A stretch of 64,000 nt of DNA from a virus, in the IMG/VR virus record IMGVR_UViG_3300043313_002018, positions 6,730 to 70,729 of that record. One strand, given 5' to 3'. Numbering within the stretch: the first letter of the stretch is position 1; every line of letters begins with the position of its first letter. Under the pieces are notes generated by a model. That model searched no databases. It was not told where the DNA came from and saw nothing but the letters and a program-made list of their open reading frames with translations. The position numbers were made by a program, and so were the translations under genes. This document shows, piece after piece, positions 6,326-63,088 of this stretch.

Positions 6326-7041
6326 TACAACCCACCCCCGCCCGGCGGCACATCCGCCGGCTGCCCGGTGGTCGGCGCATCCGGCACCAGGCTCCACGCA
6401 TACCCTTCCTTCTGGAAGGACGTGTACCAGCGGCTCATCTTGAGCAGCGCGTTGCGCTCGACGGCCGCCTTCACAAACTGCTCCAGGTACGGCTTGGTGC
6501 GATCGAGGAAACTCGCCCCCGCCTTCAGTGCGCACACGTGCAGCGCATACCCGGTGAGCGTGTCGATCTCCTCCGACCCGATGTTCACGAAGTCGCTGTC
6601 GTCGGTCAGCACCGGGGTACTCCGTACCCCGTCGACTTCGAGGCTGCCGACCACGGGGCTCGCCGGGTAGATCGCCAGCAGATTCAATCCTACCGGGGCC
6701 CAGAACAGGGGGCGCGACGGGTGCCCATCCGCCCCCGCGCGCGCCTGCCACCAGTCCGGCGTCAGCATCTGGATCTCCGCCACGCTGACCCCGGTCATGT
6801 TCTTCCCCTGCCACGTCACCGCGGTCTGCTGGGCGAGCGTCCCCGGCACCGGCACCAGCGGGTCGTTCGGCACGTTCCCCACGACGATGCGCCGGCGCCA
6901 GTAGCTCGTGAGCAGGTTCCACGTCCGGAGGGCCTGATTGAGCGCCAGGTTCGCGTCAATCTCGGTCCAGAACGGGCTCGACTCATAGCGCTGCTGCAGG
7001 AGCTGGCGCAGCTGCGCGCGCGTGGTAGTGGTGTAGGGCAT
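6325..7041 (-). CDS. Head-tail adaptor-like protein (paralogue 2)
   Basis: RAQLRQLL...W...ANLALNQALR...LAIYPAS...YALHVCALK adaptor pattern. Confidence 0.6.
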   Translation of the reverse strand: MPYTTTTRAQLRQLLQQRYESSPFWTEIDANLALNQALRTWNLLTSYWRRRIVVGNVPNDPLVPVPGTLAQQTAVTWQGKNMTGVSVAEIQMLTPDWWQARAGADGHPSRPLFWAPVGLNLLAIYPASPVVGSLEVDGVRSTPVLTDDSDFVNIGSEEIDTLTGYALHVCALKAGASFLDRTKPYLEQFVKAAVERNALLKMSRWYTSFQKEGYAWSLVPDAPTTGQPADVPPGGGGL

Positions 7042-41546: not shown

Positions 41547-41752
41547 TGGCCGACGTCATCCTTACCGTCACCGTGGCCGAGGGGTCGACGCTGCCGCAGG
41601 CGATTCGCGCCATGCTGCGGATTGCGCGGGCGTTGAGCTGTTTGGTGGGTTCCACGTGGAACGGCGAGACATTTACCGTGAACGGCGACGAGAGCTACTC
41701 CGCCGCGCAGGACCGTATCCTGAAACAGCTGAAGGTGAACGGGCGTGAGTAA
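41546..41752 (+). CDS. Small hypothetical protein
   Basis: Coupled at both ends. Confidence 0.55.
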   Translation: MADVILTVTVAEGSTLPQAIRAMLRIARALSCLVGSTWNGETFTVNGDESYSAAQDRILKQLKVNGRE

Positions 41753-43124
41753 CGGACCCCTGACACTTTCCAAGCCGATTCTCCTCTGGCTGACGGATCG
41801 CAGCCGCTACGAAACCGGCAACGCCTGCGCGCGGGAACGGCTCCTGCGCTACCACTGGGGCCCGCATGGCTACGGGATTCAGAAGGCGGCGCAGAAGATT
41901 CCCCTCGCCACCGGGGACGTGGTGCACACCGGGCTCGCACTCGTGCTCGACTACTGCCGGGACAACGATGTACTGCCGCCGGCGGAGATTGTGAATGTGG
42001 CGGTCGAGACGGCGCTCAAAAAGTACGCCCAGATCATCGACTCCCGCGGCCTCCTGCACTGGGAAGACACCGCCGAGCAGCAAGCGCGCCTCATCAGCGA
42101 GCAGCAGATGCTGATCGAAGGGTTGATCCGCGGCTGGGTGATGTGGCGCCTGCCGGAAGTCCTGAAGGTCTACCGCATCGTGTACGTCGAGCGGGAAGCC
42201 GTCAGTGTGTCCCGCTGTACCTGTGGCATCGGCGACCGCCTCGGCACGCTCGAGGATCACGTCTCCAAGGACTGCGAAGGCATCTGCATCCAGACCCGCG
42301 GCGACTTCGTGGCCCAGCATCGCACGACCGGCAACTACGCCTACAACGAGTTCAAGACCACGACCGAGAACAACATCCGGTTCCGCACGACCTACGAAAC
42401 CACGATGCAGCCCTACCTGGGCACGCTCGGGATCGAAGACGAGCTCGGCATCGACGTCACCGAGATCTACATCCACGGGCTCATCAAGGGGAAGTACACG
42501 CACGAGTACAACCCCGACACCCGCGACTACGATGGGCCCGAGTACCAGAACAGCAAGCTCTGTTACGCCTACCGGGATGAAGCGAATCCGATGGCGGCGA
42601 GCTGGACGGTCAAGAGTCAGTGGAAGGACGGGGCCGGCATGACCAAGCGGTTGCCCAAGTCCTTCAAGCGCACGCCGGTGGCGGAGTTCGGCAACTACCA
42701 GGAATACCTGGAGGCGTTTGCCGAGGACCTCGCGCCGCAAGTGCTGGTCACCCTGGGCCCGCTGCCCAAGAAGCAGCACATTCGAGATGGCGCGCTGGAA
42801 TCGTGGGTACATGAAGAGGAGCGTATCCGCTGGGCGCTCTTTGAATTCGCCGACCTGGTGGATGCGCATGGCGGCAACTGGGCGGCCGAGCCCGTGCAGC
42901 GCTTCCTCGATCGCCAGTTCCGGCGCACGTTCGACTGCCAGCGCTTCGGCGGGCGGTATGCCTGCCACATGATCCCGATCTGCCACGAGCATCCCGGTTG
43001 GGAAGATCCGATGGGGTTGCTGGGGTTTGTCCCGCGCCGACCGCATCATCTCCCGGAGGAGCAGCAGGCGATCGAACGCGGCTACCTGGCGCCCGACGTC
43101 GCGGTCGAGACGCCCGAGGATTAA
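41745..43124 (+). CDS. PD-(D/E)XK (RecB/Cas4-like) exonuclease
   Basis: DRSRY...C.RE..L.Y, TGDVVH.GL, RGDFV, NEFKTT, QPY; terminal C...C...C. Confidence 0.75.
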   Translation: MSNGPLTLSKPILLWLTDRSRYETGNACARERLLRYHWGPHGYGIQKAAQKIPLATGDVVHTGLALVLDYCRDNDVLPPAEIVNVAVETALKKYAQIIDSRGLLHWEDTAEQQARLISEQQMLIEGLIRGWVMWRLPEVLKVYRIVYVEREAVSVSRCTCGIGDRLGTLEDHVSKDCEGICIQTRGDFVAQHRTTGNYAYNEFKTTTENNIRFRTTYETTMQPYLGTLGIEDELGIDVTEIYIHGLIKGKYTHEYNPDTRDYDGPEYQNSKLCYAYRDEANPMAASWTVKSQWKDGAGMTKRLPKSFKRTPVAEFGNYQEYLEAFAEDLAPQVLVTLGPLPKKQHIRDGALESWVHEEERIRWALFEFADLVDAHGGNWAAEPVQRFLDRQFRRTFDCQRFGGRYACHMIPICHEHPGWEDPMGLLGFVPRRPHHLPEEQQAIERGYLAPDVAVETPED

Positions 43125-43133
43125 GAAGGAGGA

Positions 43134-43556
43134 GTGATGGTTGACAAGAAAGCACTGACGTTAGAGGAATTCCGCACCACCACGCGCGAGCTCGATGGCA
43201 GCGTGCCGCTGCTGTTCAACGGACAGCGGGTGCATGGCATCCTGCTCGATCGCAACACCGCCGGCGACCTGCAGGCGCACCTGCAGGGGGACAGTCTCGC
43301 CAGCGAAGACGCACCGCTGGTGCCCGTACCGGAGGCCGTAATGGCGCCCGCCGGCCACGAGCCCCGGGATATGGCCCCGGAGGTGGATGATGCCGATGCC
43401 GACACCGATCGGCTCGAATCCCTCACCGAGCGGCGCACCAACGATCCGGCGTCGCTGACCGATGAGGAACGCGAGGAGCTCGCGCGGCTCGAGAAGTTGG
43501 CCGGCGTGGAAGACCGGCGCGCACCGGACACCGGCAACGAAGGCGACCCGCTCTAG
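43134..43556 (+). CDS. Acidic hypothetical protein
   Basis: AGGAGGAG RBS. Confidence 0.6.
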   Translation: MMVDKKALTLEEFRTTTRELDGSVPLLFNGQRVHGILLDRNTAGDLQAHLQGDSLASEDAPLVPVPEAVMAPAGHEPRDMAPEVDDADADTDRLESLTERRTNDPASLTDEEREELARLEKLAGVEDRRAPDTGNEGDPL

Positions 43557-43559
43557 GCC

Positions 43560-44339
43560 ATGGCCGAAATCCCTCCGAAGATCGCGGCCGGCATCGCCGA
43601 GGGCGGCGGCCGTCACTACCGCGGGCGCGGCCTTGGCCAGATGGGCCCGTGGAAGTGCGTCGCCTGCGGCATCGAGAACGTGGGGGACTTCGGGAAGGGG
43701 TGCCAGAAGTGTGGAGCGGGTGCCCCTGGCGTGCAGACACGGAAGAAGGGTGAGGCTAGCCTGGTTACCGAGACTGCTGTCAGGGCGCCCGCTGCACGAC
43801 CCGCCCGCGCGAGCGCGACTCGTGCCGAGGGGAACACGATCGCGCAGCAGTTGCGCGGGCGGGTCGGCAGTATCGACTACGACGAGATTGAACGGCGCAT
43901 GGCACGCGCGCTGGAAGCCCGGCTCGGCGGCGGGTACACCACCCCCGAACGCCGGGTGCTCTACGAAGCGCTGGAGAGTTTCCTGATCTTGATCGACAAC
44001 GGGGAACTGGAGTTACCGGCCGGGTACATGTCGATCGAACAGATGCGCATTCTTGCGCAGAAGGTGGCCCCGGACGAGGGCCTGGAAATGGTTGAGGAGA
44101 GAGATGCCGCAAGCACCACCACCGCGCCCGAGACAGACCCCGAAGCCGGGGACCGCGCTGAAGCCAGCCCCGGCGGGGAGTACGTCCCCGACGACGACCA
44201 CGACACCGACTACGCCGATCTCGACCTCCGCACCGGGAGTCGGGTCAGTCCCGCGCCGCTCGACCCCGCGCCCGAATTCGTCGACCCTGATCCTGGGCCC
44301 GACGAAAGCCGGGAAGACGACCCTGATCGCCACGGCTAG
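43560..44339 (+). CDS. Hypothetical protein with a RanBP2-like Zn finger
   Basis: GPWKCVACGIEN......CQKCG. Confidence 0.6.
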   Translation: MAEIPPKIAAGIAEGGGRHYRGRGLGQMGPWKCVACGIENVGDFGKGCQKCGAGAPGVQTRKKGEASLVTETAVRAPAARPARASATRAEGNTIAQQLRGRVGSIDYDEIERRMARALEARLGGGYTTPERRVLYEALESFLILIDNGELELPAGYMSIEQMRILAQKVAPDEGLEMVEERDAASTTTAPETDPEAGDRAEASPGGEYVPDDDHDTDYADLDLRTGSRVSPAPLDPAPEFVDPDPGPDESREDDPDRHG

Positions 44340-45867
44340 CGAGTACATCTACGAAACCTGGGGCAAGGTCCTCGTCCTTTACACGGCGGAGCTCGGTGGG
44401 TTCAGTGCCCGCGTCGAGCAGCGCATCCGCCAGGGGTTGATTCGTCCGGTGCGCATGCGCACGCGCGATGACGAGGAGAACTCGCTCTCGTTTGAAACCC
44501 TGCAGCTCTGCTCCAAGGGCTACATGCCGGTGCGCTTCCTCAACCCGCTGGAAGGCGAGGTCGAGCAGGGCGTGCCGATGATCGGCCCGACCACCACCAT
44601 TCACGAGCAGTTCTGCGGCAGCTGTGCCGGCTCAGTACAACGCACCCGCTTCAAGAGCAAGCTGCGCAACACCACCTGCCCGCATTGCAAGAAGCCGGTA
44701 ACGATCAGCACCGGAACGGTCGTGAGCACCGTGCAGCAGACCAAGGGGTTTGAGAATATCGGGGGACTTGGCTACGACGGGCTCACCTCCTTCAGCGACT
44801 GGTACCTGCAGGATATGTCCCACCGCAAGAACCTCGAGGGCGAGAAGGCGGCGCTTGGCGGCGAGATTGAGTCGGGCAACATCACCTTCCGGGGTAACAA
44901 CCGCAGCCAGGTCGGCATGGCGCAGACGCGGGTACACGAGCTCGTGGCGAACAGCCTGAGCATCCCGAACTTGGAGCTGATGCCGTTCTGGACGGCGATC
45001 TCGCATGAGAGCTCCGACGATACCGGCCGCCTGACCATCGTCGGACCCAAGCTGGCCGGCGACGCCAAGACCTACATCGCTTGCAGCTGGTTCGGCAACG
45101 TCGTGGAAGCCGACGTGCGCCAGAACGAGCACCACGAGTACATCCGCCGCCTCTGGGTCAGCCAGTTCTACGACGAGAACAACCGCCGGCACCTGTGCGG
45201 CCACCGTGGCGATCCGCGCTTCATGGACGTCTACTACGAGGACGCGCCCTACAGCGACGAGAAGCCGCCGACGGAAATCTGCACGGGGTTCTCGCTCAGC
45301 TACTTCCTGAAGCAGGTGGAGCTGAGCATCCAGAAGGGTATGGACGTCGACAAGATCGGCGACGGCAAGATGCCCGGGACGGATAGCATCCCCACGATCT
45401 ACGGGGATGCGGATGACGAGCTGGCGCCGGCACCGGTGGCAGCAGTGGCCGCGGGACCCAAGGCGGTCAGCCGCAAGCCGGGCGTGGTGAAGCCGAAGCC
45501 GCCAGGCGCGAAGCCGGCACCGGTAGCGACGTCCGCACCCGAGCCTGAGCCCGAGCCCGAGGTCGATCCCACGCCTGACAACAGCACGGTGGCGGAAGAA
45601 GCCGCTGAGGAAACGGAAGCTCCGGCAACCGAGGAGGTTGTCCCCGAGGTGCAGGAGTCGGAAGCGCCGGCGGAGGACCAGTCCTCTCCCGCCGAGCCCG
45701 CACCGACGCCTGTGCAAACCGCGACCGCGGCTCCCGCACCGCCTGCTCCTGGTGCGTGGGCCCGGCCCGCGGGCAGCAAACCGCCGGCGCCTCGTGCGCC
45801 GCAACCTGGCCCCAAGGCCCCGGCGCGCACTGCGCCCCGGCCCGTGCAGGCCATGAAACCGAGCTAA
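44104..45867 (+). CDS. AAA_24/Sak4-like ATPase (recombinase) with a Zn-ribbon insert and Pro/Glu-rich tails
   Basis: Walker A LILGPTKAGKTT, YDGLTS, GPKLAG; CGSC...CPHC insert; GAGGAG RBS before ATG 44104. Confidence 0.7.
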   Translation: MPQAPPPRPRQTPKPGTALKPAPAGSTSPTTTTTPTTPISTSAPGVGSVPRRSTPRPNSSTLILGPTKAGKTTLIATASEYIYETWGKVLVLYTAELGGFSARVEQRIRQGLIRPVRMRTRDDEENSLSFETLQLCSKGYMPVRFLNPLEGEVEQGVPMIGPTTTIHEQFCGSCAGSVQRTRFKSKLRNTTCPHCKKPVTISTGTVVSTVQQTKGFENIGGLGYDGLTSFSDWYLQDMSHRKNLEGEKAALGGEIESGNITFRGNNRSQVGMAQTRVHELVANSLSIPNLELMPFWTAISHESSDDTGRLTIVGPKLAGDAKTYIACSWFGNVVEADVRQNEHHEYIRRLWVSQFYDENNRRHLCGHRGDPRFMDVYYEDAPYSDEKPPTEICTGFSLSYFLKQVELSIQKGMDVDKIGDGKMPGTDSIPTIYGDADDELAPAPVAAVAAGPKAVSRKPGVVKPKPPGAKPAPVATSAPEPEPEPEVDPTPDNSTVAEEAAEETEAPATEEVVPEVQESEAPAEDQSSPAEPAPTPVQTATAAPAPPAPGAWARPAGSKPPAPRAPQPGPKAPARTAPRPVQAMKPS

Positions 45868-49883: not shown

Positions 49884-51157
49884 AGGACAGCACGCCGGCG
49901 CCGCTCGCCGAGGGGGAGGCGCCCAACTGGCCCGGCCCGTTTCAGTTCGTCACCGGGCCCGCCGGCTGCGGGAAGACGTACCTCGCCCGCCAGTGGGGCC
50001 TGCACGACAAAGGCTTCCTGCTCTGCGCGACCACTGGCATCGCCGCGGTGAACCTGGGCGACGCGGTAACGGTACACAGCACGCTCAAGTTCTTCGACAC
50101 CGCCTCCCTCGAGGAGAACTTCGTCTCGGGCCACTTGCAGGCCCGCATGCGCAAGCTGCGCGCTAGCGGTATCACCCGCTACGGCATCGACGAGGTAAGC
50201 ATGATGCCGGCCCGGGTGCTCACCACCCTCACCCACGCGATCGAGGAGCTGAACTCCGACGCCGCCGTGGACATGGGGCACGAGCCGCAGATCGGCATCA
50301 CCCTGATCGGCGACTTCCTGCAGCTCCCGCCGGTCAAGGAGGAGTACGCCTTTCAATCCCCCGAGTGGCCGAAGTACGAAGCGCACATGCTCAAGCTCAG
50401 TACCACCTACCGCCAGACGGACCCCGATTTCATCCGGGCCCTGCGCGCGGTACGCCTGGGGCAGCCGGAGGAAGCGATGGACGTCCTCGGCCCGCACATT
50501 CAGCCGTCGCTGGACATGCGCTTCGACGGCACCACCATCCTCAGCAAGAACCTGCAGGTGGATCGCTTCAACAAGCTGCGCCACCAGGAGCTCGCCGGCG
50601 ACGTGCTCACCTACAAGAACACCATTACCGGCAAGCCGCTCCCCGAGTGGGAGAAGAATATCCCGATGTTCGTGGGACTGAAGCGCGGCGCCAAGGTGAT
50701 GATCCTGGCGAATAAGTACCTGGATATGGGCGGCGGCGAGCGGCTGCTGCTCTACGCGAACGGCGACACCGGCACCTTTGTGGACGGGGACCCGCGTACC
50801 AAGGTGGCCCACGTGCAGCTGAATCGCAGCGGGGAAGTCGTCCCGGTTACCTACAACATCCGGCAGAACCTGCTGCCGACCGGCGCCAAGGGGAAGAAGA
50901 AGGACCGGTATCAGGTGCTAGGTGAGGTCGAGTACATGCCGCTGCGGCTGGCGTACGCCTCGAGCGTACACAAATCCCAGGGCCTGACCCTCGATCAGGT
51001 GCAGGTCGATATTAGCGATCCGTTCTTTGCGGCGCCGGCGATGGTGTACGTGGCACTAAGCCGGGGGCGCTCGTTAGAGGGGCTGAGACTGGTGGGGAAC
51101 CCGGCGCTGCTGCTGAAGCGGTGCACGGTGGACCCATTGGTGGAGAGGTGGCGATGA
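49817..51157 (+). CDS. Pif1/RecD-like SF1B helicase
   Basis: FVTGPAGCGKT, DEVSMM, GDFLQLPPV, PLRLAYASSVHKSQGLTLD, YVALSR; likely GTG start 49817 after GGAGGAG (frame open back to 49232). Confidence 0.9.
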   Translation: MAEQPTPGEHTLPLTFQHLDEVEDSTPAPLAEGEAPNWPGPFQFVTGPAGCGKTYLARQWGLHDKGFLLCATTGIAAVNLGDAVTVHSTLKFFDTASLEENFVSGHLQARMRKLRASGITRYGIDEVSMMPARVLTTLTHAIEELNSDAAVDMGHEPQIGITLIGDFLQLPPVKEEYAFQSPEWPKYEAHMLKLSTTYRQTDPDFIRALRAVRLGQPEEAMDVLGPHIQPSLDMRFDGTTILSKNLQVDRFNKLRHQELAGDVLTYKNTITGKPLPEWEKNIPMFVGLKRGAKVMILANKYLDMGGGERLLLYANGDTGTFVDGDPRTKVAHVQLNRSGEVVPVTYNIRQNLLPTGAKGKKKDRYQVLGEVEYMPLRLAYASSVHKSQGLTLDQVQVDISDPFFAAPAMVYVALSRGRSLEGLRLVGNPALLLKRCTVDPLVERWR

Positions 51158-51999
51158 GTTTGCGATTGTGTCATCCGGGAAAGTTCGGGGATCTGCTCTG
51201 GGCCCTGCCCACCGCGCGCGCGCTGGCCGAACAGGCCGGCAAGGATGAGGAGTACGGCGGGGTAGAACTGCACCTGCCCAGCGCACTGCGCTCGATCAAA
51301 CCCCTGCTCGAGAAGCAGGGCGATTACCTTGCCAGCGTCGTACTGCATGACGACTGGCAGGTACAGGACACCGCGCCAGCCACACCGTTGCAGCCGCCCG
51401 GGTACACGATGCCCTCGCTCGGCTACAAGCAGTGGCCCGTACGCGAACTCCCCTACGAGGTCGCCTGGGAGCACGGCATGTACGAGAGTGGCCTGAGCGA
51501 CGCCCACTTCTTCCGCCCCTGGATTCACGTTCTCCCCTTGGACTATAACCTGGCCAGCGACCGGCAGCGCCTGGTCGTGCACTGGACCGATCGGTGGTTT
51601 GAGCTCAAACTGGGCATTCTGCGCGAGCTCCAGCGCGTCCTCGCCCGGGATGTGTACTGCCAGTGGATCGCGGCACCGGGATCGCGCATGGCCGAGGCCG
51701 GCGCGGTGCAGGTGGACTGGGTGGCCCTGGCGCGTACCCTGGCCGGCGCCGATGCCGTGCTGACCGACTGCAGCAGCGCGCACGTGCTGGCGGCCGCGGT
51801 GGGGGTGAAGACCATCCTGGTGGTCGAACCGGAAACGGATCGCCACCACTTCATCTTCTGGCCGGGGAGCACGGACACCTGGCAGCCGCGAGACACCGTG
51901 CTGGGGCGGGCGATCCGGCCGGTGCTGGGGAACGACGGGAAGCCCACCTTTGACTCGCGCCATACCATTGAGGAGGTCACCCGTGCCCTACGCCGCTGA
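51154..51999 (+). CDS. Glycosyltransferase, GT9 (heptosyltransferase)-like
   Basis: GKFGDLLWALPTARAL and ADAVLTDCSSAHVLAAAVG..T. Confidence 0.7.
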   Translation: MSLRLCHPGKFGDLLWALPTARALAEQAGKDEEYGGVELHLPSALRSIKPLLEKQGDYLASVVLHDDWQVQDTAPATPLQPPGYTMPSLGYKQWPVRELPYEVAWEHGMYESGLSDAHFFRPWIHVLPLDYNLASDRQRLVVHWTDRWFELKLGILRELQRVLARDVYCQWIAAPGSRMAEAGAVQVDWVALARTLAGADAVLTDCSSAHVLAAAVGVKTILVVEPETDRHHFIFWPGSTDTWQPRDTVLGRAIRPVLGNDGKPTFDSRHTIEEVTRALRR

Positions 52000-53605: not shown

Positions 53606-53878
53606 GCCATGCTGGTGGCCCTGGTATCCAGCGTGCTCGAGTGCGGCGTCGCCGAGCACAGCGACATGCTCAAAACGGCGGTACGCACGGCCGACTCGTC
53701 GATCGAGTTTGTGACCGACGGCGCTTGGCTCGATCCGCAGCAGTTCTCGGGTACCTTCCCCGATGGCCGGGGATTTGACGCGGTACGGGGCGGACTTACC
53801 CATACACGCTTCGACGCCGCACTCGAGCACGCTGGATACCAGGGCCACCAGCATGGCCTACCGGTCCTTCGTGGCGAT
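53585..53878. repeat. Perfect 67-bp inverted repeat (53585-53651 / 53812-53878) with a 160-bp loop
   Basis: Base-by-base reverse complement; produces identical N-termini MLVALVSSVLECGV on both strands. Confidence 0.95.
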
Positions 53879-54706
53879 TTGGTGCACCTCAACTACCACC
53901 GCGGGCTGCATTCCCGCTGGACGCCGGAGGTGATCGCCAGCTACGGGCCCACCCCCTTCGTCATCACCTTCCACGACACGTTCGAGACGCAGCCGGACGA
54001 TCTAGCCTTCCGTCTCCTCGACACCTTCAACGTGCGCGGCATGGTGGTACACGAGCCCTGCGACCTCGTGAGCCATCCCAAGGTCCACTACTGGCGCCAG
54101 CCTTGCCCGCCGCCCCTCGGCCGCGGCTGGCCGGCGGATATCCCCAAAGTGTTCACTGCCCATGGCTGGCGCCCGACCCTCGGCACGCTCGGCTGGGACT
54201 TCCCGTGGAAGAACTACGACCTGCTGGCGGACGTCACCGCCGAGCGGGGCTGGAACCTGCGGATTGTCGGCAAGGTCGACGGGGACCGGCGGAAAGCGCT
54301 GGCCGCTCGCAACCCGAACATCTGGTTTGACGGCTACGTGGAGACGCCGGATGCGATCGCCAAGCTCAGTGCGTGCGACGCGACGGCGTTCCTGTACACC
54401 TGCGCCAATTCCGGCACGAGCGGGGCGATTCGCCAGGGCATTACGGCGGGCAAGCCACTGATCGCGGCAACCGGCTGCCGACAGTTCCGGGACTTGGAGG
54501 GTACCGCAGAGGGGTGGCCGATTCGGTGGATTGCGCCGAATGCCGATGCGCTCGCCATGACGCTGGACACCGGCGAGTACGGGTACAGCTTTGCCCTGAT
54601 CGGCCTCGCCCAGGACCTCAGCTGGGAGAAGGTTGGGCCGCAGTACGCCAAGCTGTATCGAGACGCGGTAGCGGATGCCGCGAGAAACGCCCGGCGCCTG
54701 CCATGA
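53609..54706 (+). CDS. Glycosyltransferase, GT-B-like, carrying the inverted-repeat insertion
   Basis: CGVAEH..ML, VHLNYH, VITFHD, GTLGWDFPWKNYD, SGAIRQGI.AGKPLI. Confidence 0.75.
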   Translation: MLVALVSSVLECGVAEHSDMLKTAVRTADSSIEFVTDGAWLDPQQFSGTFPDGRGFDAVRGGLTHTRFDAALEHAGYQGHQHGLPVLRGDLVHLNYHRGLHSRWTPEVIASYGPTPFVITFHDTFETQPDDLAFRLLDTFNVRGMVVHEPCDLVSHPKVHYWRQPCPPPLGRGWPADIPKVFTAHGWRPTLGTLGWDFPWKNYDLLADVTAERGWNLRIVGKVDGDRRKALAARNPNIWFDGYVETPDAIAKLSACDATAFLYTCANSGTSGAIRQGITAGKPLIAATGCRQFRDLEGTAEGWPIRWIAPNADALAMTLDTGEYGYSFALIGLAQDLSWEKVGPQYAKLYRDAVADAARNARRLP

Positions 54707-55611
54707 AGGTCCTCCTGATCGGCAACCTCTCCGACCGCCGCTGCGGCTTCCAGAACTTCACCGCGCAGATGCAGCACGCGCTGCACGCCCGTGGGGACGT
54801 GGAGCTGACCATGTACGACGGCACCTACTCAGCGGTGTACGCACGCCAGCAGCTCCCCGGCCGGCATTACGACGGCTTCTTCCCAGCGAACCTGGACGAG
54901 TTCAACGTCGTGCACCTCGTCTGGAACGCCATGACGATGAACCATTATGCCGGCGCTCCGTGGTCCCTGCTCGAGGGGATCGTGCTCCGCAGCTGGTGGG
55001 ACGGCGGCCCGAGCGACGCCTCCTGCCCCTTCGAGCCCCACATGGACGTCAAGTGGAGCGACTACCCGCGGGAGGGCTACGAGTACATGGCCTACCCAGT
55101 CCCCGACTGGGTGGACGACCTGCCGGCCACCGCTCCCACCTTTACCGTGGGTTGCAGCTCTGTGCGCGGCGATGGCGTTGCCAGCGTGCGGGAGGTGTGC
55201 CAGAAGCACGGCTGGGCCCTCAACCTGCCCGAGCCCGGCCAGTGGCTGTCGATCGAGGACGAAATCCGCCGCCTCGCGCGCAGCTCGGTCAATGTCTGCT
55301 GGTACAACACCCCGCCGCTCTGGCACAACCGGGCCAGCGCGCCCAGCATGCTGATCGCGGCCCTGCGCCCGCTGCTCATCAACGACGACCCGCTGGTGGC
55401 GCACCTGCAGGGGTACACCGGCGAGCAGGGTATCTACAAGGGCAGTAAGCACGGTTGGGACTACGGCCCGAATCTTGAGGAGTGCCTGATCGCGCTGGAC
55501 ATGCTGCACCGCACCGGCGGACTCTCGACGCCGCAGCGACCGCTTTCCGACCTGAGCTGGACCCGTGCCGCCCGGCAGTTCGTGCAGACGTGGGAGGCCG
55601 CCCGTGCGTAG
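54703..55611 (+). CDS. Glycosyltransferase, GT-B-like (divergent)
   Basis: MKVLLIG...CGF.NF...NVVHL.W...SAP...IAA.RPL......SW...A..F; paralogous layout to the upstream GT. Confidence 0.6.
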   Translation: MKVLLIGNLSDRRCGFQNFTAQMQHALHARGDVELTMYDGTYSAVYARQQLPGRHYDGFFPANLDEFNVVHLVWNAMTMNHYAGAPWSLLEGIVLRSWWDGGPSDASCPFEPHMDVKWSDYPREGYEYMAYPVPDWVDDLPATAPTFTVGCSSVRGDGVASVREVCQKHGWALNLPEPGQWLSIEDEIRRLARSSVNVCWYNTPPLWHNRASAPSMLIAALRPLLINDDPLVAHLQGYTGEQGIYKGSKHGWDYGPNLEECLIALDMLHRTGGLSTPQRPLSDLSWTRAARQFVQTWEAARA

Positions 55612-56524
55612 GGTCGCCGTTACCGGGACCACCGGGTTCCTCGGGAACGCGGTGGTGCGCGCGCTCGAAGAGGGCGGGTACACGGTCCTCGTGCTGGGCG
55701 GGGTCAACCTGCTGAACGAGCACGCGACCGAGGCGGCGATTGAACGCCTGCCGGCGCACACCCCCGTCATCCACCTCGCCTACCCCGGTGGCGACGGTAT
55801 CGGCGACGCGCTCAAGCACCCGGCCACGATCGCGCTCAACCTGATGCGCATGGACCTGAACGTCATTCAGGCGTGCGCGCGGCAGCACATCTCGAAGCTG
55901 GTCTGCATCGGCTCGGTCTGCGCGTACCCGGAACGCACCAACGTCCCGACCTGCGAGGAGATGCTCTGGAGCGGCTACCCCGAGCCGGTGAACGCCAGCT
56001 ACGGCATCGTCAAGCGCACCCAGCTCGCGCTACTGCAAGCATGCCGGGACGAGTTCAACCTGAACGGCATCCACCTGATCCTGCCGAACCTCTACGGCCC
56101 CGGCGACCGCACCAAGCACGTCATCCCTGCGCTGATCGGGCGCATGCGCAAGGCCGCCCGCGACGGCGACGGCGTGGTGACCATCTGGGGCCACGGGGAC
56201 GTCAGCCGCAGCTTCCTCTACATCGACGACGCCGCGGCCGGCATTGTCCGCGCGCTCGAGCACTACAATCGTCCGGCGCCACTTAACCTGGTGAACGCCG
56301 GCGAAACCACCATGTACGAGCTCGCCCGCATCCTGCAGGTCTACACCGACTACTACGGCGGCCTGGAGTGGGACACCACCCAACCCGTCGGCCACCGGCA
56401 GCGCAACTTTTCTCAGGTCAACATGGTGCACGCGCTCGACTGGCGTCCGCGGGTCGGGCTGGCCGACGGCCTGCAGCAAACGGTCCACTGGCACCAAACC
56501 GAATACCCCACGGAGTCCCTCTAA
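55604..56524 (+). CDS. fcl: GDP-L-fucose synthase-like NAD(P)-dependent epimerase/reductase
   Basis: VTG.TGFLG, GSVCAYP, EE.LW.GYPEP.N..YG..KR, NLYGPGD, HVIPALI, IWG.G..SR.FLY.DD. Confidence 0.8.
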   Translation: MRRVAVTGTTGFLGNAVVRALEEGGYTVLVLGGVNLLNEHATEAAIERLPAHTPVIHLAYPGGDGIGDALKHPATIALNLMRMDLNVIQACARQHISKLVCIGSVCAYPERTNVPTCEEMLWSGYPEPVNASYGIVKRTQLALLQACRDEFNLNGIHLILPNLYGPGDRTKHVIPALIGRMRKAARDGDGVVTIWGHGDVSRSFLYIDDAAAGIVRALEHYNRPAPLNLVNAGETTMYELARILQVYTDYYGGLEWDTTQPVGHRQRNFSQVNMVHALDWRPRVGLADGLQQTVHWHQTEYPTESL

Positions 56525-57735
56525 TGCCGTTGCTGAGTACCGAACTGTCCGCCTGCCGCGTCTGCGGCGACACCAGCGCCATCGAGCCAGTCCTCGAACT
56601 GGGTCCGCAGAAACTCAGCGGGTTCCCGGCCAACGCCGAGGAAGCCGCCGCGGTACACACCGTGCCGCTCGATCTGCTCCACTGCAGCAACTGCGGCACG
56701 GTGCAGCTCTCCCACACCGTCAACCCGGCGCTGTTGTTCCGCGACCAGTACTGGTACGCCTCCGGCATCAACGGCATGATGCGCGAGGAGCTGCGCAACG
56801 TGGTGCGCGAGGCCCGCGGCTGGGTCAAGGTCCGCGACGGCGACTGGGTGCTGGACATTGGCGCCAACGACGGCACCCTGTTGAATGCCTGGCGCGAGCA
56901 CGCCTGGGAGGGCCGGCCGATGCGGGTAGCGGTGGAACCCTCGCCGACGTTCCGCACGGCCCTCCACGACGTCAGCGACCTCTACATCCCGGACGTCTTC
57001 CCGACGCCACTGGACATGCAGTTCAAGGTCATCACCTCGATCGCCATGTTCTACGCCGTGCCGACGCCAGTGGAGTTCGCGCAGGCCATCCGCGAGCGCC
57101 TGACTCCCGACGGCGTGTGGATCGTCCAGATGCAGGACCTGCACAACATGGTGCAGGCGACGGCGTTCGACAACATCTGCCACGAGCACCTCGCCTACTA
57201 CAGCGTGAGCAGCTTCCACGAGGTGTGCACGCGGGCCGGGCTGAAGATTGTGAGCGTCCAACCCCGCGAGATCAACGGCGGCAGCCTCCGCTTTATCGTG
57301 CAGCGGCTCGAGGAGGGGGAATCGGCCGCGCGCCCGCCGATCCGCGAGTCCCGGATTGACTGGCCGCTCTTTGAGGAGACGCTGGTGCAGCGCTGCGCGT
57401 CCCTCGCCACCATGGTCGACGCCGCGCAGTCTCACGGCCACCAGGTCGACCTGCTCGGCGCCAGCACCAAGGGCAACACGCTCCTGCAGATCGCCGGCCT
57501 CGGCCCGCACAACATCCGCCAGGCCTGGGAGCGCCACCCGGATAAGATCGGCCGGCACACGATCACCGGCATCCCGATCGTCGGCGAGGAGCAGGGTCGC
57601 CTCTCCCCGCCCGACCTGCTGGTCTGCCCGATCTGGCAGTTCCGACGCGGGATCATCGAGCGCGAGCACGACTACCTGACGGCCGGCGGGCGGATTTACT
57701 TCCCGCTGCCGGACGGGGAGATGTTTTGCGGTTAA
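56524..57735 (+). CDS. NDP-hexose C-methyltransferase (Zn-binding, SAM and C-terminal domains)
   Basis: CRVCG, LDIGANDGTLL, FDNICHEHLAYYS, INGGSLR, GASTKGNTLLQ, K.G....TGIPI. Confidence 0.85.
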   Translation: MPLLSTELSACRVCGDTSAIEPVLELGPQKLSGFPANAEEAAAVHTVPLDLLHCSNCGTVQLSHTVNPALLFRDQYWYASGINGMMREELRNVVREARGWVKVRDGDWVLDIGANDGTLLNAWREHAWEGRPMRVAVEPSPTFRTALHDVSDLYIPDVFPTPLDMQFKVITSIAMFYAVPTPVEFAQAIRERLTPDGVWIVQMQDLHNMVQATAFDNICHEHLAYYSVSSFHEVCTRAGLKIVSVQPREINGGSLRFIVQRLEEGESAARPPIRESRIDWPLFEETLVQRCASLATMVDAAQSHGHQVDLLGASTKGNTLLQIAGLGPHNIRQAWERHPDKIGRHTITGIPIVGEEQGRLSPPDLLVCPIWQFRRGIIEREHDYLTAGGRIYFPLPDGEMFCG

Positions 57736-57755
57736 TGGCAGGAGGCTGAGGTCCC

Positions 57756-58232
57756 ATGCAGAAGTTCAAGAGTCATAAAATCGTCGAGGCCGCTCGCATC
57801 GATAGCATGCAGGTCACCGGCCGCACCCGCACCCTCAAGCTGGTGAACGCGCCGCCGGTCGAAGTCGACCAGACCTGGTGCGCCAAACACCAGCCGGAAG
57901 TCGGCGGCTACTACGTCGTGTACCCTGACCACTACACCAGCTACTCCCCGGCGAAGGCGTTCGAGGACGGCTACACGGTACTCGTGGATACCGCGCCGGC
58001 CGACCTCACGGCCAAGGCCGGCAGCGACCCGATCCTCGAGTTCTTCGCCTACGAGCACCTGCCGTATCACCTGCAGGAGATTTCCCGGCCGTTCGGGGAG
58101 CTGGTGATTCGGATGGTGGGGTTGCTACCGCGGAACGCCGAGCGCTCGGCCATGTTCCGGAAGATCCTCGAGGGCAAGGACTGCGCGGTGCGCGCGAAAC
58201 TGGCGAGTCCGCCGCCGACGGTGGTGCCATGA
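57756..58232 (+). CDS. Two-domain phage protein; C-terminal helical hairpin reminiscent of Acb2/Tad1-like proteins
   Basis: N-terminal K.VEA...GGYYVVY.D.Y.S.SP.KAFE.GY; C-terminal F.Y.HLP..LQ.IS.PF...LP...ERS...RK.LE.KD.AVRA. Confidence 0.55.
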   Translation: MQKFKSHKIVEAARIDSMQVTGRTRTLKLVNAPPVEVDQTWCAKHQPEVGGYYVVYPDHYTSYSPAKAFEDGYTVLVDTAPADLTAKAGSDPILEFFAYEHLPYHLQEISRPFGELVIRMVGLLPRNAERSAMFRKILEGKDCAVRAKLASPPPTVVP

Positions 58233-59038
58233 CTGGGCTCGGCCTCGTCATCATCCCGTTTATCGACTGCCCCAACGAGACGGCGGACGCCCTGCACGAT
58301 GCCAGCTACCAGCTGGGCGGGCAGGTCCAGATCCTCCTGATCGACCAAGGCAGCGCGGACCCGACTCTGGGCACCGCCGGACTGGCGGCAGCAGATCGTC
58401 GCATCCGCGTGTGGCGTCACGCCCCGCCGCTCCCCTCCCTCGCCGCCACCTGGAACGCCGCCCTCGACTACGCTTGGGAGCTCGGGCACGAGGACGCGAT
58501 GGTCTGGAACAACGACATTCGGGTACGCGCGGGCATGTACGCCGACCTGCGCCTGCTGGCCGCCGCCCGCGATCTGTGGTTCGTCTCCCCGGTCAACTGC
58601 CGTGACGGCGACCGCGCGAGCTGGCAGACGAACCCGGAGGATATTGGGGTCAGCCTCGGTGGCCCGGACTTCAGCTGCTTCCTCATCACGCGCGCCTGCC
58701 ATGAGAAGTACCGCTTCGACGAGCGCTTCCAACCCGCGTACCACGAGGACGGCGACTACCACCGCCGTATGTGGCTCGGCGGGGACGGGGCGAAGATCGC
58801 CGGCGCGAATCTCCCCTACCTGCACTACGGCTCGCGCACGATCAACCGGAGCAACGAGGCCGCGCATGCGTTCAGTCGGCAGTTTGAAGCCTGCCGGGAA
58901 CGCTACATCCAGAAGTGGGGCGGGGTGCCGCACCATGAGCGCAAAGTGCTGCCGGATTCCGCCGAGGACTTCAGTGGGGTGGGCACGCCTGGCGGGTACC
59001 TCACGATGCCGCCGGCTATCGGCATTCCGGGGCTCTGA
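58229..59038 (+). CDS. Glycosyltransferase, GT-A (GT2-like)
   Basis: IIP, LLIDQGS, A.TWN.AL, VWNND, FDERF.PAY.EDGDY.RRM. Confidence 0.8.
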   Translation: MTGLGLVIIPFIDCPNETADALHDASYQLGGQVQILLIDQGSADPTLGTAGLAAADRRIRVWRHAPPLPSLAATWNAALDYAWELGHEDAMVWNNDIRVRAGMYADLRLLAAARDLWFVSPVNCRDGDRASWQTNPEDIGVSLGGPDFSCFLITRACHEKYRFDERFQPAYHEDGDYHRRMWLGGDGAKIAGANLPYLHYGSRTINRSNEAAHAFSRQFEACRERYIQKWGGVPHHERKVLPDSAEDFSGVGTPGGYLTMPPAIGIPGL

Positions 59039-59687: not shown

Positions 59688-60047
59688 ATGCCCGTGCCCG
59701 GCGCTTCCGCCACCCTGCGCGATCGCATCCTCGGCAAGATCGTCATGCCGGGACCCGCCACCCCCTGCGCCACCTGGGTCGGCGCCTACAACGTCGACGG
59801 ACGCCGCAGCGGCCGGCGCAACCGCGGCCGGCGCCCGGTGATTAGCGCCGGGGTGTTCCGCGGCCGCACGCTCTACGTGGCGCCGACCTTGCTGCAGCTG
59901 GCCGGCATTGCCCCGTCCCATCCGGCCGCCGAGGCCGGCCACCGGTGCCCCTGTGGCGTCCGCCACGACGGGCTCTACTCCTGCGTCGACCTCGACCACC
60001 TGTGCTGGGTCGATCGCACGGAGAACGAAGCGGACAAGCGGCGATGA
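59688..60047 (+). CDS. HNH (His-Cys box-like) endonuclease
   Basis: C.TW.GA...G...AGHRC...CV.LDHL.W..R.EN. Confidence 0.7.
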   Translation: MPVPGASATLRDRILGKIVMPGPATPCATWVGAYNVDGRRSGRRNRGRRPVISAGVFRGRTLYVAPTLLQLAGIAPSHPAAEAGHRCPCGVRHDGLYSCVDLDHLCWVDRTENEADKRR

Positions 60048-63000
60048 GCGTCGGCAAGCACAAACGGCCGCCGGGCTGCTTCGCCTGCCCGCTGGAACGC
60101 GCCGGTGCGGGCTACGTCCCCGGTGAGGGCCCGGTCGGGGCGCCCATCACGCTCCTCGGCGAGTTCGCCGGCTACGACGAGATCGCCATTGGCCGCCCGC
60201 TGATCGGCGCCGCCGGCGGCTTGCTCTCGCGCCTGCTCCATCGCACTTTCCGCACGCGCGAGCAATTCCGCATCGAGAACGCGGTACGCTGCTGCCCGCC
60301 CGGGCACACGCTCAAAGGCGAGTGGGCCCAGGCTGCCGCGGACCATTGCAGCCAGTACTCGAACCCCGCGCTGGAACAGAGTTCTGTTATCGTCGCCATG
60401 GGCGAGCTCGCCATCCGCCAGGCGCTCAACCTCTGGGACCCCGACGTCAAGAAGCTGGTGGAGAACTTCCACGGCACCGTCACCGATCTCCCCGACGGCC
60501 GCCGCGTGGTCTGCACGTACCACCCGAACTTCCTCCGGGGCAATATGTCCCTGTTCGGCACCGTGGCGTACGACCTCAGCGTCGCGGAAGACGTCGCCAA
60601 CGGCACCTGGCAACGCGAACCGATCACGCCGATCATCGACCCCCATCCCGCATGGGTACGTACGTACATCGACCAGTACCGCGCGGCCATCCGCTCGGGC
60701 GAACCCATCGCCCTCGTCACCGACATTGAGACGCCCGACAAGGCGAAGGGCAAGGCCGAGGACGAGCTCGACGAATCGGACCAGAGCTTCCAGGTCGATC
60801 GGGTGAACTTCAGCTACCACGACGACGAAGGCATCACCGTGCCCTACGTCGGTCCCTACATTCCGCTGGTGCACGAGCTCATCGCGCTGGGCAACCTCCA
60901 CTACCTCTGGAACGGCGACTACGACCTGCGCCGGTTGCAGCGGCTCGGGGCGCAGTTCAGCGGCGAGATCTGGGACGGCATGTGGCTCTGGCACCACTAC
61001 ATGAGCGACGTCCCCAAGGGGCTGGGGTACGTGGCGCCGTTCTGCAGCACGCACGGCGCGTGGAAGCACAAATTTAGCAGCGAGCCGGGGCTGTACGCGG
61101 CGCTCGACGGCCCGCAGACGCGGCGCAGCGTCAACCGCACCGTGGAAGCGCTCGACCTGCGCGGCCAGTGGACCATGGCGCACCGGCACACGGTACGCCT
61201 GATGCAGAACGTCCTGAAGCCGGCGCAGGTGGTCGGGATCCAGGTGGACCGGCCGGCGCTCGATGCCTTTGAGGCCGACCTCGCGGCGAAGACCAAGATT
61301 CTCCTCGGGCAACTGCAGGAATGCGTCCCCGTGGCCGAGCGTCCCCTCACCGGCGGCACCGACCACCAGGGCTTCAAGAAGCGCCCGGAAGGCCCGCACC
61401 CGAACGCCACCACGCTCAAGAAGGACGGCGTGGCGAAGAAGGGCGCGGAAGACTGGGACCCGCTGAAGGTAGAGCTGTACCAGCGGCACGCGCGGCTGGT
61501 GGAGCTCCAGGTGAGCCGGGACCTGCGGGTGTGCGTGAGCTGCGGCCAGGAAGATGTGGTTGCCAAGCACCGCTGCGCCGACAAGAAACTGACGCCCTCG
61601 GTGCAGGTGCAAGCGCGCTCCGTCGTCCGCTACTTCTGGCAGGAGCCGTTCAACCCCGACTCCCCGAAGCAGAGTCTCTCCTACATCCTCGCCCGCAAGC
61701 ACAAGCCCGGCAAGAGCAAGCAGACCAAGCAACCCTCGGCCGACCGGGAATGCCTCACGCGCCTGCGGGCCACCACGAAGGATCCCTTCTATGCCACCTT
61801 GCTTGATTATCGCGGCGTCGCCAAGGTACGCGGTACATATGCGATTGGCGTACGTAAGCGACTCGACCACGGGAACCGGTTTCACCCCGTACCGACGCTC
61901 AAGCCCAGCACCCTACGTACCAGTTACGTCTCCCCCAACATCCAGAACGTCGTCGCCGATAAGGACTCGACGAAGACGCTGGCGGCGGGCTTCCGACGCT
62001 GTATCGTCGCCGCCCCGGACTGCTGGCTGGTGGAGCTGGATTACTCCGGGATCGAGGCCATGCAGCTGGCGTGGTTCGCCCGCGACCCGGTGCTACACCG
62101 GCTGGCACGCCTGGGCATCCATGCGTACCTAGCCAGCCACCTGCTGAAGCGGCCGGCGGACCTCAACTGGAGCGATGCCGACCTGCTCGAGTACTTCCAG
62201 GAGCTCAAGAAGGGTGAGCCCTTCATGTACAACCAGGCGAAACGTACCGTGCACGGCAACGGCTACGGCATGACCCCCCAGGGCATGTTTATGATGTTCC
62301 CCGACCTGTACAAAACCGTGAAGGACGCGCAGTACGTGCAGGACCTCTACTTCGCGGTGGCGCCGGCCGTGCCGCGGCTGCAGAACGAGATTCGCCTGCG
62401 CGCGCATGACCAGACCTACATCGGCGGGCCGAAGGATGCCAAGTTCCGCAGCATTCTCGACGACCCGAACGCGCACCCCTACGGCTACCGGCACGACTTC
62501 TACGACGTGGTGACGCTGACTCCCATTGGTCCCGAGAGCAAGCGCCGCATGGAGCAGGAACGCATCCCGATCATCGAGATGAACGGCCGGCTGTACGCGG
62601 CCAAGTGGGGCCCGGACAGCAAGCGCTGCCTCGCGTTCTACCCGCAGAGCACCGCCGCCGGCAACTTGAAAGAGGCCGCGTTGTACCTCTTTGATGAGCC
62701 CGACCACCCGAGCTACATCGGCGACGCCTACTTCGGCAAGACGCCGCTCCGGGCGCCGATTCACGACAGCTTGCTGTTAGAGGTGCCCGACAAGCAGCTC
62801 GATCGGGTGCTCGAAGCCGCCTTCCGCGAGATGGTCCGCCCGATCGAGGAGCAGCCGCTCCCGGCCGCGTGGAACCTCGGGCCGTATCTGACCATTGGCG
62901 TCGAGGGCAAGCGCGGCCGCAACTGGGAGGACATGGAAAAGGTAAAGAGTCCCACCCCGTCCCAGCTCGGGCTGGACGTGCTCAACTACGTGCCGGACAA

Positions 63001-63088
63001 TTCGCTCGCGTTCGACCGCAGTTACTTCCCGGCGGTCGAAGAGGAGGAGGAAGACGTGGAAGATCTCAGGGTGGTGGTCCGTGGCTAA
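60044..63088 (+). CDS. polA: Family A DNA polymerase with an N-terminal family-4 UDG-like domain and 3'-5' exonuclease
   Basis: UDG: CFAC, GE.AG.DE...GRP.IGAAG, RCCPP, YHP. Exonuclease: DIET, WNGDYD, YAALD. Polymerase: DYSGIE, AKRTVHGNGYG, PQS, IHDSLLLE. Confidence 0.9.
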   Translation: MSVGKHKRPPGCFACPLERAGAGYVPGEGPVGAPITLLGEFAGYDEIAIGRPLIGAAGGLLSRLLHRTFRTREQFRIENAVRCCPPGHTLKGEWAQAAADHCSQYSNPALEQSSVIVAMGELAIRQALNLWDPDVKKLVENFHGTVTDLPDGRRVVCTYHPNFLRGNMSLFGTVAYDLSVAEDVANGTWQREPITPIIDPHPAWVRTYIDQYRAAIRSGEPIALVTDIETPDKAKGKAEDELDESDQSFQVDRVNFSYHDDEGITVPYVGPYIPLVHELIALGNLHYLWNGDYDLRRLQRLGAQFSGEIWDGMWLWHHYMSDVPKGLGYVAPFCSTHGAWKHKFSSEPGLYAALDGPQTRRSVNRTVEALDLRGQWTMAHRHTVRLMQNVLKPAQVVGIQVDRPALDAFEADLAAKTKILLGQLQECVPVAERPLTGGTDHQGFKKRPEGPHPNATTLKKDGVAKKGAEDWDPLKVELYQRHARLVELQVSRDLRVCVSCGQEDVVAKHRCADKKLTPSVQVQARSVVRYFWQEPFNPDSPKQSLSYILARKHKPGKSKQTKQPSADRECLTRLRATTKDPFYATLLDYRGVAKVRGTYAIGVRKRLDHGNRFHPVPTLKPSTLRTSYVSPNIQNVVADKDSTKTLAAGFRRCIVAAPDCWLVELDYSGIEAMQLAWFARDPVLHRLARLGIHAYLASHLLKRPADLNWSDADLLEYFQELKKGEPFMYNQAKRTVHGNGYGMTPQGMFMMFPDLYKTVKDAQYVQDLYFAVAPAVPRLQNEIRLRAHDQTYIGGPKDAKFRSILDDPNAHPYGYRHDFYDVVTLTPIGPESKRRMEQERIPIIEMNGRLYAAKWGPDSKRCLAFYPQSTAAGNLKEAALYLFDEPDHPSYIGDAYFGKTPLRAPIHDSLLLEVPDKQLDRVLEAAFREMVRPIEEQPLPAAWNLGPYLTIGVEGKRGRNWEDMEKVKSPTPSQLGLDVLNYVPDNSLAFDRSYFPAVEEEEEDVEDLRVVVRG

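Follow-up and report, generated by a model that had tools for sequence, protein, structure and literature searches.

A reductase and C-methyltransferase gene pair in a phage genome: a candidate route to a branched deoxysugar from a host precursor

How could a phage that encodes no sugar dehydratase come to make a C-methyl-branched deoxysugar? The question is raised by a 64,000-nucleotide stretch of viral DNA (positions 6,730 to 70,729 of IMG/VR record IMGVR_UViG_3300043313_002018; hereafter the window), in which two adjacent genes at 55604-57735 encode a short-chain dehydrogenase/reductase (SDR) that resembles GDP-L-fucose synthase (the GMER/Fcl family) and a C-methyltransferase (C-MT) of the kind that acts on nucleoside diphosphate (NDP)-4-ketosugars. 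Most C-branched sugars known so far come from antibiotic pathways, with some further cases from the glycans of a few pathogens. The full record, that of a soil phage, is 71,802 bp long with a G+C content of ~66%, has direct terminal repeats and is 100% complete according to CheckV, and the window covers most of it. An earlier note, made from the sequence of the window, had proposed that the phage diverts host GDP-4-keto-6-deoxymannose into a branched sugar donor for its glycosyltransferases. On balance we lean towards such a scheme, in which the product of the host GDP-mannose 4,6-dehydratase (Gmd) is C-methylated by the phage enzyme and then reduced by the phage SDR, to serve the phage glycosyltransferases as a donor. 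Most likely, the gene pair is a cassette of a kind that recurs in viruses, here without its dehydratase, for making a GDP-linked C-methyl-branched 6-deoxyhexose.

The two enzymes

The C-MT has the three-part architecture of the NDP-hexose C-methyltransferases, the family to which the earlier note had assigned it. Its N-terminal zinc domain (PF08421 Methyltransf_13, 3e-12), class I S-adenosylmethionine (SAM) methyltransferase domain (PF13489 Methyltransf_23, 3.7e-14) and C-terminal C-MT domain (PF08484 Methyltransf_14, 5e-21) all score above the Pfam cut-offs, and full-length matches were obtained to MtmC (2e-34), TcaB9 (1e-29) and KijD1 (1e-27), the alignments with MtmC and TcaB9 spanning residues 8-397 of 403. 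Cys11/Cys14 and Cys54/Cys57 align with the two CxxC pairs of TcaB9 and MtmC. The Glu224/His225 dyad of TcaB9 corresponds to Glu221/His222 of the phage enzyme and Tyr76 to Tyr76; the positions of Tyr222, Glu224 and His181 in TcaB9 were located by comparing the point-mutant PDB sequences 4e2x, 4e2w and 4e2y with the wild type. A catalytic role of the TcaB9 dyad and of Tyr76 was reportedly described by Bruender and Holden in 2012. The four cysteines, the DIGANDG motif, the segment I218-C219-H220-E221-H222 and Tyr76 are invariant in 19 members of the C-MT clade, which is common to the sibling phages described below and has 100* support in the tree. Since Cys219 lies within A[FV]DNICH, one of the two search motifs, its recurrence among relatives fetched with that motif is partly built in. 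The earlier note had proposed to check the catalytic residues of both enzymes. For the C-MT, as judged from alignment, the zinc site, the SAM motif and the Glu-His dyad are intact and two auxiliary residues differ; the latter are taken up where the proposed route is weighed.

For the SDR, Pfam, NCBIfam and solved structures agree on the GDP-fucose-synthase-like assignment. Pfam Epimerase is matched at 4.9e-40; among the NCBIfam families GDPFucSynFcl (NF047922) scores highest with 178.7 bits, which falls short of the equivalog cut-off of 500 bits; and the closest solved structures are those of GDP-L-fucose synthases (1e-39 to 1e-34, residues 2-297). The N-terminal GxxGxxG motif of the extended-SDR fold is present as VTGTTGFLG. 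When the SDR was aligned against E. coli Fcl from the K-12 record (30% identity), the Ser107/Tyr136/Lys140 triad fell on Ser104/Tyr133/Lys137 and the epimerase pair Cys109/His179 on Cys106/His172, so that all five catalytic residues, including those of YxxxK, are kept. They are also invariant in the 34-member alignment of the SDR clade, except Lys137, which is present in at least 90% of the rows.

The SDR nevertheless stands apart from canonical Fcl. In the tree it belongs to a well-supported 35-member clade outside the clade of the E. coli, S-SKS1 and DSL-LC02 Fcl proteins. Other members of its clade score 162-175 bits on the Fcl model, whereas Gmd-adjacent environmental Fcl-like proteins reach 263-325 and cyanophage Fcl proteins 435-444. 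Immediately in front of the catalytic His, four residues are missing from the SDR and its aligned close relatives (NLYGPGD----RTKHVIP, SDR residues 165-172); other Fcl-like proteins, including most of the aligned ones that adjoin a C-MT, have these loop residues between NLYGPGD and His. The divergence of the clade from the Fcl model and the deletion beside the catalytic His would fit an altered substrate.

A different variation is seen in three C-MT-adjacent Fcl-like SDRs from candidate-phyla-radiation (Patescibacteria) genomes, at L084:1082-1999, L142:5058-5945 and L114:2390-3307 (L numbers denote loci of this analysis). They carry Thr at the Cys position of GMER and Phe or Tyr at the His position, and by these residues look like reductase-only partners of C-MT.

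Substrate and proposed route

No Gmd is found in the window, as the earlier note had stated, and this holds for the whole complete genome: across the 71,802-bp record PF16363 matches the SDR alone, and PF00483, for sugar nucleotidyltransferases, has zero matches. The SDR is the only one in the genome. As the phage has no dehydratase, second SDR or nucleotidyltransferase, any 4-ketosugar must be host-supplied.

To see which ketosugar this could be, we turned to the gene neighbourhoods of C-MT relatives, taking the best 80 of 382 confirmed IMG/VR stretches from an alignment-based scan and the best 80 of 163 confirmed cellular stretches. Neighbours were scored with E. coli Gmd, Fcl, RmlA-D and ManB/C seeds, and a true Gmd was one at least 40% identical to E. 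coli Gmd. Of the 80 viral loci, 41 have such a Gmd at a distance of up to 3 kb from the C-MT (23 of them at up to 500 bp), and none has RmlB in the 3-kb range. The corresponding cellular counts are 14/80 for Gmd within 3 kb, 7/80 within 500 bp and 2/80 for RmlB within 3 kb; an Fcl-like gene is found in the 3-kb range at 7/80. Of five cellular genomes whose C-MT stands alone, four encode a Gmd above the family cut-off elsewhere. Triads of Gmd, Fcl-like and C-MT genes recur (L017, L024, L038, L055, L052/L053, L114 and L146), and at L017 they are consecutive overlapping genes in which the SDR precedes the C-MT as in the analysed phage. Because viral relatives of the C-MT adjoin Gmd in half of the loci and never RmlB, and because the triads recur, GDP-4-keto-6-deoxy-D-mannose is the likely substrate. 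The GDP specificity is read from gene neighbourhoods only, and position C3 only from analogy with the solved relatives.

A 4-ketosugar is required by the enzymes of both families, and the SDR is the only possible phage-encoded 4-reductase, which we count in favour of a joint pathway. The following route can be envisaged. Host Gmd would supply GDP-4-keto-6-deoxy-D-mannose. In the C-MT, with its structural Cys4 zinc site, the Glu221-His222 dyad would remove the proton beside the 4-keto group, and the resulting enolate would take the methyl group from SAM, at C3 by analogy with all solved relatives, with C5 as a possibility. Cys106/His172 of the GMER-like SDR would then epimerise whichever centre still has a proton, probably C5, and Ser104/Tyr133/Lys137 with NADPH would reduce C4 to give a GDP-6-deoxy-C-methylhexose. 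Finally, one of the soluble phage glycosyltransferases (54703-55611 or 58229-59038) would transfer the sugar to a cytoplasmic acceptor; virion proteins seem the likeliest target, and a host lipid-linked glycan or DNA is possible.

The precedent to which the earlier note had pointed, virenose in the lipopolysaccharide (LPS) of Coxiella burnetii, is as it had stated, and is itself in silico only: the locus encodes a Gmd (CBU_0689), a TylCIII-like C-MT (CBU_0691, reported to be 42-44% identical to TylCIII, EryBIII and AviG1) and a GMER (CBU_0688) (PMC3539893). The same three enzyme families would be at work, an intermediate derived from GDP-4-keto-6-deoxymannose being C3-methylated and then handled by a GMER-type epimerase/reductase. 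Unlike Coxiella, the phage lacks Gmd and the GDP-mannose steps, so that its triad is incomplete, with C-MT and the GMER-like SDR only, and its C-MT belongs to a group with Cys at the position of TcaB9 Tyr222. The settings differ as well, a virus with soluble glycosyltransferases against an LPS O-antigen locus, and both pathways are predictions.

The phage C-MT resembles the dTDP-sugar C3-methyltransferases TcaB9, KijD1, MtmC and TylC3 (PDB 3ndi, 5t64, 4rv9) in its three-domain architecture and has the same Cys4 zinc site, SAM motif, Glu-His dyad and equivalent of Tyr76, at an identity of only ~27-30%. It differs at the positions of Tyr222 and His181 of TcaB9 and in its company: the partners of its relatives are Gmd and Fcl-like genes and not RmlA/RmlB, hence the predicted GDP-sugar substrate. 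The SDR has the fold, GxxGxxG motif, triad and epimerase pair of E. coli Fcl/GMER, from which it differs in its low identity, its score far below the equivalog cut-off, the 4-residue deletion, the missing phage Gmd and the union with a C-MT.

Annotations of virus-encoded Gmd and Fcl already exist for cyanophages. Chlorovirus PBCV-1 carries Gmd and Fcl as auxiliary genes, and in cyanophage S-SKS1, too, virus-encoded tailoring of a GDP-sugar by Gmd and Fcl would feed viral glycosyltransferases. The fullest deposited phage version of the present module is in Synechococcus phage DSL-LC02 (L164, OR032571.1 92163-109377), where the consecutive genes for Gmd, C-MT and Fcl are followed by 8 genes annotated as glycosyl- or glucosyltransferases and by an FkbM methyltransferase. 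This phage differs in being a T4-like cyanophage with its own Gmd and a canonical-type Fcl (435 bits). Its C-MT is annotated merely as 'methyltransferase domain-containing protein', and in its Gmd/Fcl passage the DSL-LC02 paper assigns ORF140 and ORF142 to fucose and leaves the C-MT that separates them without comment (PMC10611076).

For the destination of the sugar, the best precedent for a likely virion target is that of mycobacteriophages (cluster O, Che8-type), in which glycosyltransferases and a methyltransferase decorate capsid and tail-tube proteins (Freeman et al. 2023, as cited in PMC11600133). There, too, the glycosyltransferases are phage-encoded and soluble and act together with a methyltransferase. 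The difference lies in the chemistry, which is O-methylation; the account in the citing source PMC11600133 names no nucleotide-sugar tailoring enzymes and reports no C-branched sugar. By analogy, decoration could affect virion stability, adsorption or immune recognition.

Our literature search found no paper discussing a virus-encoded sugar C-branching step. The enzyme families themselves are well known and the logic of the pathway could have been foreseen; the novelty lies in its viral context, in the dependence on a dehydratase of the host and in a GMER-like clade that has diverged. As 382 IMG/VR stretches encode C-MT relatives and half of the best 80 have Gmd alongside, branched-sugar synthesis may be a common and overlooked viral function. 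We tentatively suggest that many uncultured phages make a GDP-linked C-methyl-branched 6-deoxyhexose for their own particles or other targets, and that in the present phage a divergent GMER has adapted to a quaternary C3, performing C5 epimerisation and C4 reduction only, on a host-derived 4-keto precursor. If true, no GDP-dependent sugar C-methyltransferase pathway would have been shown in a virus before this one, and the virenose model would gain experimental support. The enzymes are small and soluble, and expression in E. coli, a host able to provide the Gmd product, makes the chemistry directly testable. The phages also form a comparison set, with SDR and C-MT but no Gmd (the analysed phage), C-MT alone (its siblings), and Gmd with C-MT and with or without Fcl (other viruses), from which one could learn which steps can be left to the host.

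One pathway or two

That the two genes serve one pathway is suggested by their joint occurrence. Close relatives of the C-MT (61-74% identical) and of the SDR (44-75%) were found on equally long contigs of 72107, 12436, 24568, 36852 and 37322 bp, and a sixth, more distant pair (48% and 50%) on an 11537-bp contig; the co-occurrence on these contigs is taken from the matching sizes in bp alone. The closest relatives, 58-86% identical, are on Logan and ENA contigs. The branching orders of the C-MT and SDR trees are roughly alike. Moreover, Fcl-like and C-MT genes that lie less than 100 bp apart are seen repeatedly at unrelated loci of viruses and cells (L017, L055, L084, L088, L116, L142, L114 and L146).

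Several observations weigh against a joint pathway or against parts of the proposed route. Three syntenic sibling phages (L001-L003; 100% complete, ~72 kb) keep the C-MT without any Epimerase-family SDR genome-wide; the C-MT therefore does not need a phage reductase. As a control, we fetched 80 metagenome Fcl-like proteins through two motifs kept in the SDR clade (35-43% identical to the SDR): their genes adjoin Gmd in 30/80 and lie near a C-MT in 1/80, so that the wider Fcl-like group looks like Gmd-partnered Fcl, as far as gene neighbourhoods can tell. If C3 of the substrate is quaternary, the SDR would make only half use of its complete Cys/His epimerase pair. In the C-MT, Cys219 stands at the position of TcaB9 Tyr222, and no His is found at that of TcaB9 His181, where Pro182 or Ala178 is placed depending on the template. 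Finally, the literature search found no assay of a GDP-dependent C-MT, and in the Coxiella virenose pathway the methylation and reduction steps are predictions. We had also considered from the tree that the SDR belongs to a dedicated clade of C-MT partners; weakened by the same control, this idea was dropped. For the diversion of host GDP-4-keto-6-deoxymannose proposed in the earlier note, the outcome is divided: the substrate is supported by the Gmd neighbourhoods and the triads, but a joint pathway of the two enzymes is not established in view of the SDR-less siblings and the control.

The siblings further show which parts of the module are fixed. Synteny with L001-L003, at 34-44% identity, extends over the GT4 gene, the GT2-like gene, open reading frames (ORFs) 51154, 52901 and 53609, the C-MT, the glycosyltransferase at 58229 and the family A DNA polymerase (PolA); the helicase has a match in one sibling, L001. 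In the siblings, the slot of the glycosyltransferase 54703-55611 and the SDR is occupied by FkbM-type and class I methyltransferases (L001:8669-9990, L002:8775-9446, L003:8542-9207). By this comparison the C-MT is the conserved element, and the glycosyltransferase and the SDR look as if they had come in together as a replacement unit; tailoring units of the glycan module are apparently exchanged while the C-MT stays in place. In the interval from the C-MT to the GT2-like gene, L002 carries a tyrosine-integrase-family gene (L002:12123-13226, Pfam Phage_integrase 1.7e-15) and L001 a Dam-like N6-adenine methyltransferase (L001:11439-12071).

The alternative that survives best, though we consider it unlikely, is that of two independent branches. 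The SDR would be an ordinary GDP-L-fucose synthase, acquired with the glycosyltransferase 54703-55611 as a fucose and fucosyltransferase unit, and the C-MT would act alone as in the siblings, with the reduction of its 4-keto product left to some enzyme of the host, to a bifunctional Gmd of the host or, as with MtmC, to the C-MT itself; a 4-ketoreductase activity of MtmC is reported, as cited in another paper. All five GMER residues being kept, the preference of the control proteins for Gmd, and the absence of both the SDR and the glycosyltransferase from siblings that keep the C-MT would all be expected if there were two branches, and the annotations of cyanophages S-SKS1 and DSL-LC03 give a precedent for a phage Fcl accompanied by a fucosyltransferase. 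An ordinary fucose synthase, however, would not be expected to score as low as the SDR clade does (162-179 bits on the Fcl model against 263-444 for the others) or to carry a deletion beside its catalytic His. Co-inheritance of the pair on at least five related contigs and the close adjacency of such genes in unrelated loci also argue against independence, and the two enzymes would compete for one host intermediate. The two possibilities would be compatible if the SDR accepts both ketosugars.

It is also conceivable, but improbable, that the sugar is made as proposed and the glycosyltransferase array decorates the phage DNA, as a hypermodification against restriction. The glycosyltransferase genes are indeed interleaved with the helicase and PolA; phage pairs of a glycosyltransferase and a sugar epimerase that glycosylate 5-hydroxymethylcytosine (5hmC) are documented beside replication genes (bioRxiv 10.1101/2023.12.21.572611); and the T4 DNA alpha-glucosyltransferase family is the ESM Atlas feature match of rank 23 (0.95) for ORF 54703-55611. 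The top Atlas matches of this ORF, however, are generic viral GT4 clusters, and neither PF12851 (Tet_JBP) nor PF00303 (Thymidylat_synt) has a match in the genome, so that no 5hmC or 5-hydroxymethyluracil (5hmU) acceptor is predicted; the early ORFs at 41745-45867, which have no annotation, leave room for a new acceptor chemistry.

Least probable of all, and unlikely in our judgement, is a dTDP-sugar route on the host RmlB product, as in mycarose or tetronitrose biosynthesis, which would suit the dTDP-ketosugars used by the structurally characterised relatives TcaB9, KijD1 and MtmC and a small DPANN clade of C-MT relatives that adjoins RmlA, RmlB and RmlD genes, but is opposed by the absence of RmlB within 3 kb in all 80 viral loci as against 41 with Gmd, by a partner SDR of the GMER family, whose characterised members to our knowledge use GDP-sugars, and by the usual 4-ketoreductases of such routes being RmlD-like, of which the phage has none.

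Gene block, glycosyltransferases and acceptor

The structural genes are on the minus strand, and a long plus-strand block holds replication genes, a PIF1-like helicase and a PolA with an N-terminal domain resembling uracil-DNA glycosylase (UDG), interleaved with glycosyltransferase-like genes (Table 1). The coordinates given for the gene pair in the earlier note are exact, and its description of adjacent, translationally coupled genes holds. The SDR gene starts with GTG at 55604, preceded by GGGAGG at 55592-55597, and overlaps by 8 nt the upstream glycosyltransferase ORF, which ends in TAG (55609-55611). The SDR stop is TAA (56522-56524), and the C-MT gene, with GGAG at 56512-56515, starts with ATG at 56524, sharing one base with that stop (TAATG), and ends at 57735. 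Further upstream, the TGA of ORF 53609-54706 overlaps the start codon of ORF 54703-55611 as ATGA. Such stop/start overlaps are the rule across these four genes; the coupling of SDR and C-MT is real, yet it is not specific to that pair.

Table 1. Glycan-related and neighbouring genes of the plus-strand block (window coordinates).
Feature	Position	Strand	Basis
GT4-type glycosyltransferase, 398 aa	46779-47975	+	Pfam Glyco_trans_1_4 3e-8; phrog_2170 glycosyltransferase 5.6e-18
GT2-like ORF, 291 aa	48364-49239	+	weak Pfam Glyco_tranf_2_5 1.6e-4, below cut-off; kept in L001-L003
Conserved ORF, 365 aa, first of four overlapping genes	53609-54706	+	homologs of 34-38% identity at the same position in L001-L003
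GT-B-fold (GT4/GT1-like) glycosyltransferase, 302 aa	54703-55611	+	ESM Atlas features and structure
GMER/Fcl-like SDR, 306 aa	55604-56524	+	Pfam, NCBIfam, solved structures, catalytic residues
SAM-dependent NDP-4-ketosugar C-methyltransferase (C-MT), 403 aa	56524-57735	+	Pfam, full-length matches to TylC3/TcaB9/KijD1/MtmC family
ORF without annotated function, 158 aa, between C-MT and GT2-like gene	57756-58232	+	PHROGs 1761, 5120, 11049 (all unknown function)
GT2-like glycosyltransferase, 269 aa	58229-59038	+	weak Pfam Glycos_transf_2 (0.004); phrog_29879 'galactosyl transferase' 8e-10; kept in L001-L003

The arrangement is not a mis-assembly, since zero-mismatch Logan contigs from 4 further soil metagenome runs bridge both the glycosyltransferase/SDR and the SDR/C-MT junctions. 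In these runs, which date from 2019, the same phage is present with identical sequence (window 53609-59038) at a low depth of ~3-6x, in addition to its occurrence in the probable source run. No RNA dataset is among the Logan runs listed as carrying the pair sequence, and a blastn search of the pair against 50,697 phage records gave zero matches.

Two glycosyltransferases could use the product. In the ESM Atlas, ORF 54703-55611 has a feature score of 0.97 to viral GT1/GT4 clusters and a structural TM score of 0.74-0.79 to GT4 families. It belongs to a small family, since only 62 relatives were found in a set of 1.84 billion representatives, and no tblastn match was found in L001-L003. We regard it as a candidate transferase for the SDR product. 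Outside the siblings, the C-terminal ~100 residues of the GT2-like protein 58229-59038 are found again at 12 viral loci, always on the same strand and downstream of the C-MT: at a distance of 2.5-4.3 kb in 11 of them (L005, L007, L008, L010, L011, L014, L015, L017, L019, L039 and L071) and of 7.9 kb in L024. This protein may be a transferase dedicated to the C-methyl sugar. A hydrophobicity scan of the block found no transmembrane segments except one weak match in ORF 51154-51999, and Pfam and PHROG searches of the module found no flippase, polymerase or initiating phosphotransferase, which points to a cytoplasmic acceptor.

The remaining observations concern the neighbouring genes and the cellular relatives. 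ORF 53609-54706 has zero Pfam or PHROG matches, and the same is true of four successive early ORFs (459, 140, 259 and ~500 aa) at 41745-45867, directly 5' of the glycosyltransferase block. None of the 80 cellular C-MT loci shares other genes of the phage. In Acidobacteriota, the phylum of the Vicinamibacteria-titled metagenome-assembled genome behind L112, a C-MT relative is present in 10 of 401 genomes, at up to 42% identity. The PolA at 59945-63088 carries its N-terminal UDG-superfamily domain at residues 59-201 (Pfam UDG 5.4e-11).

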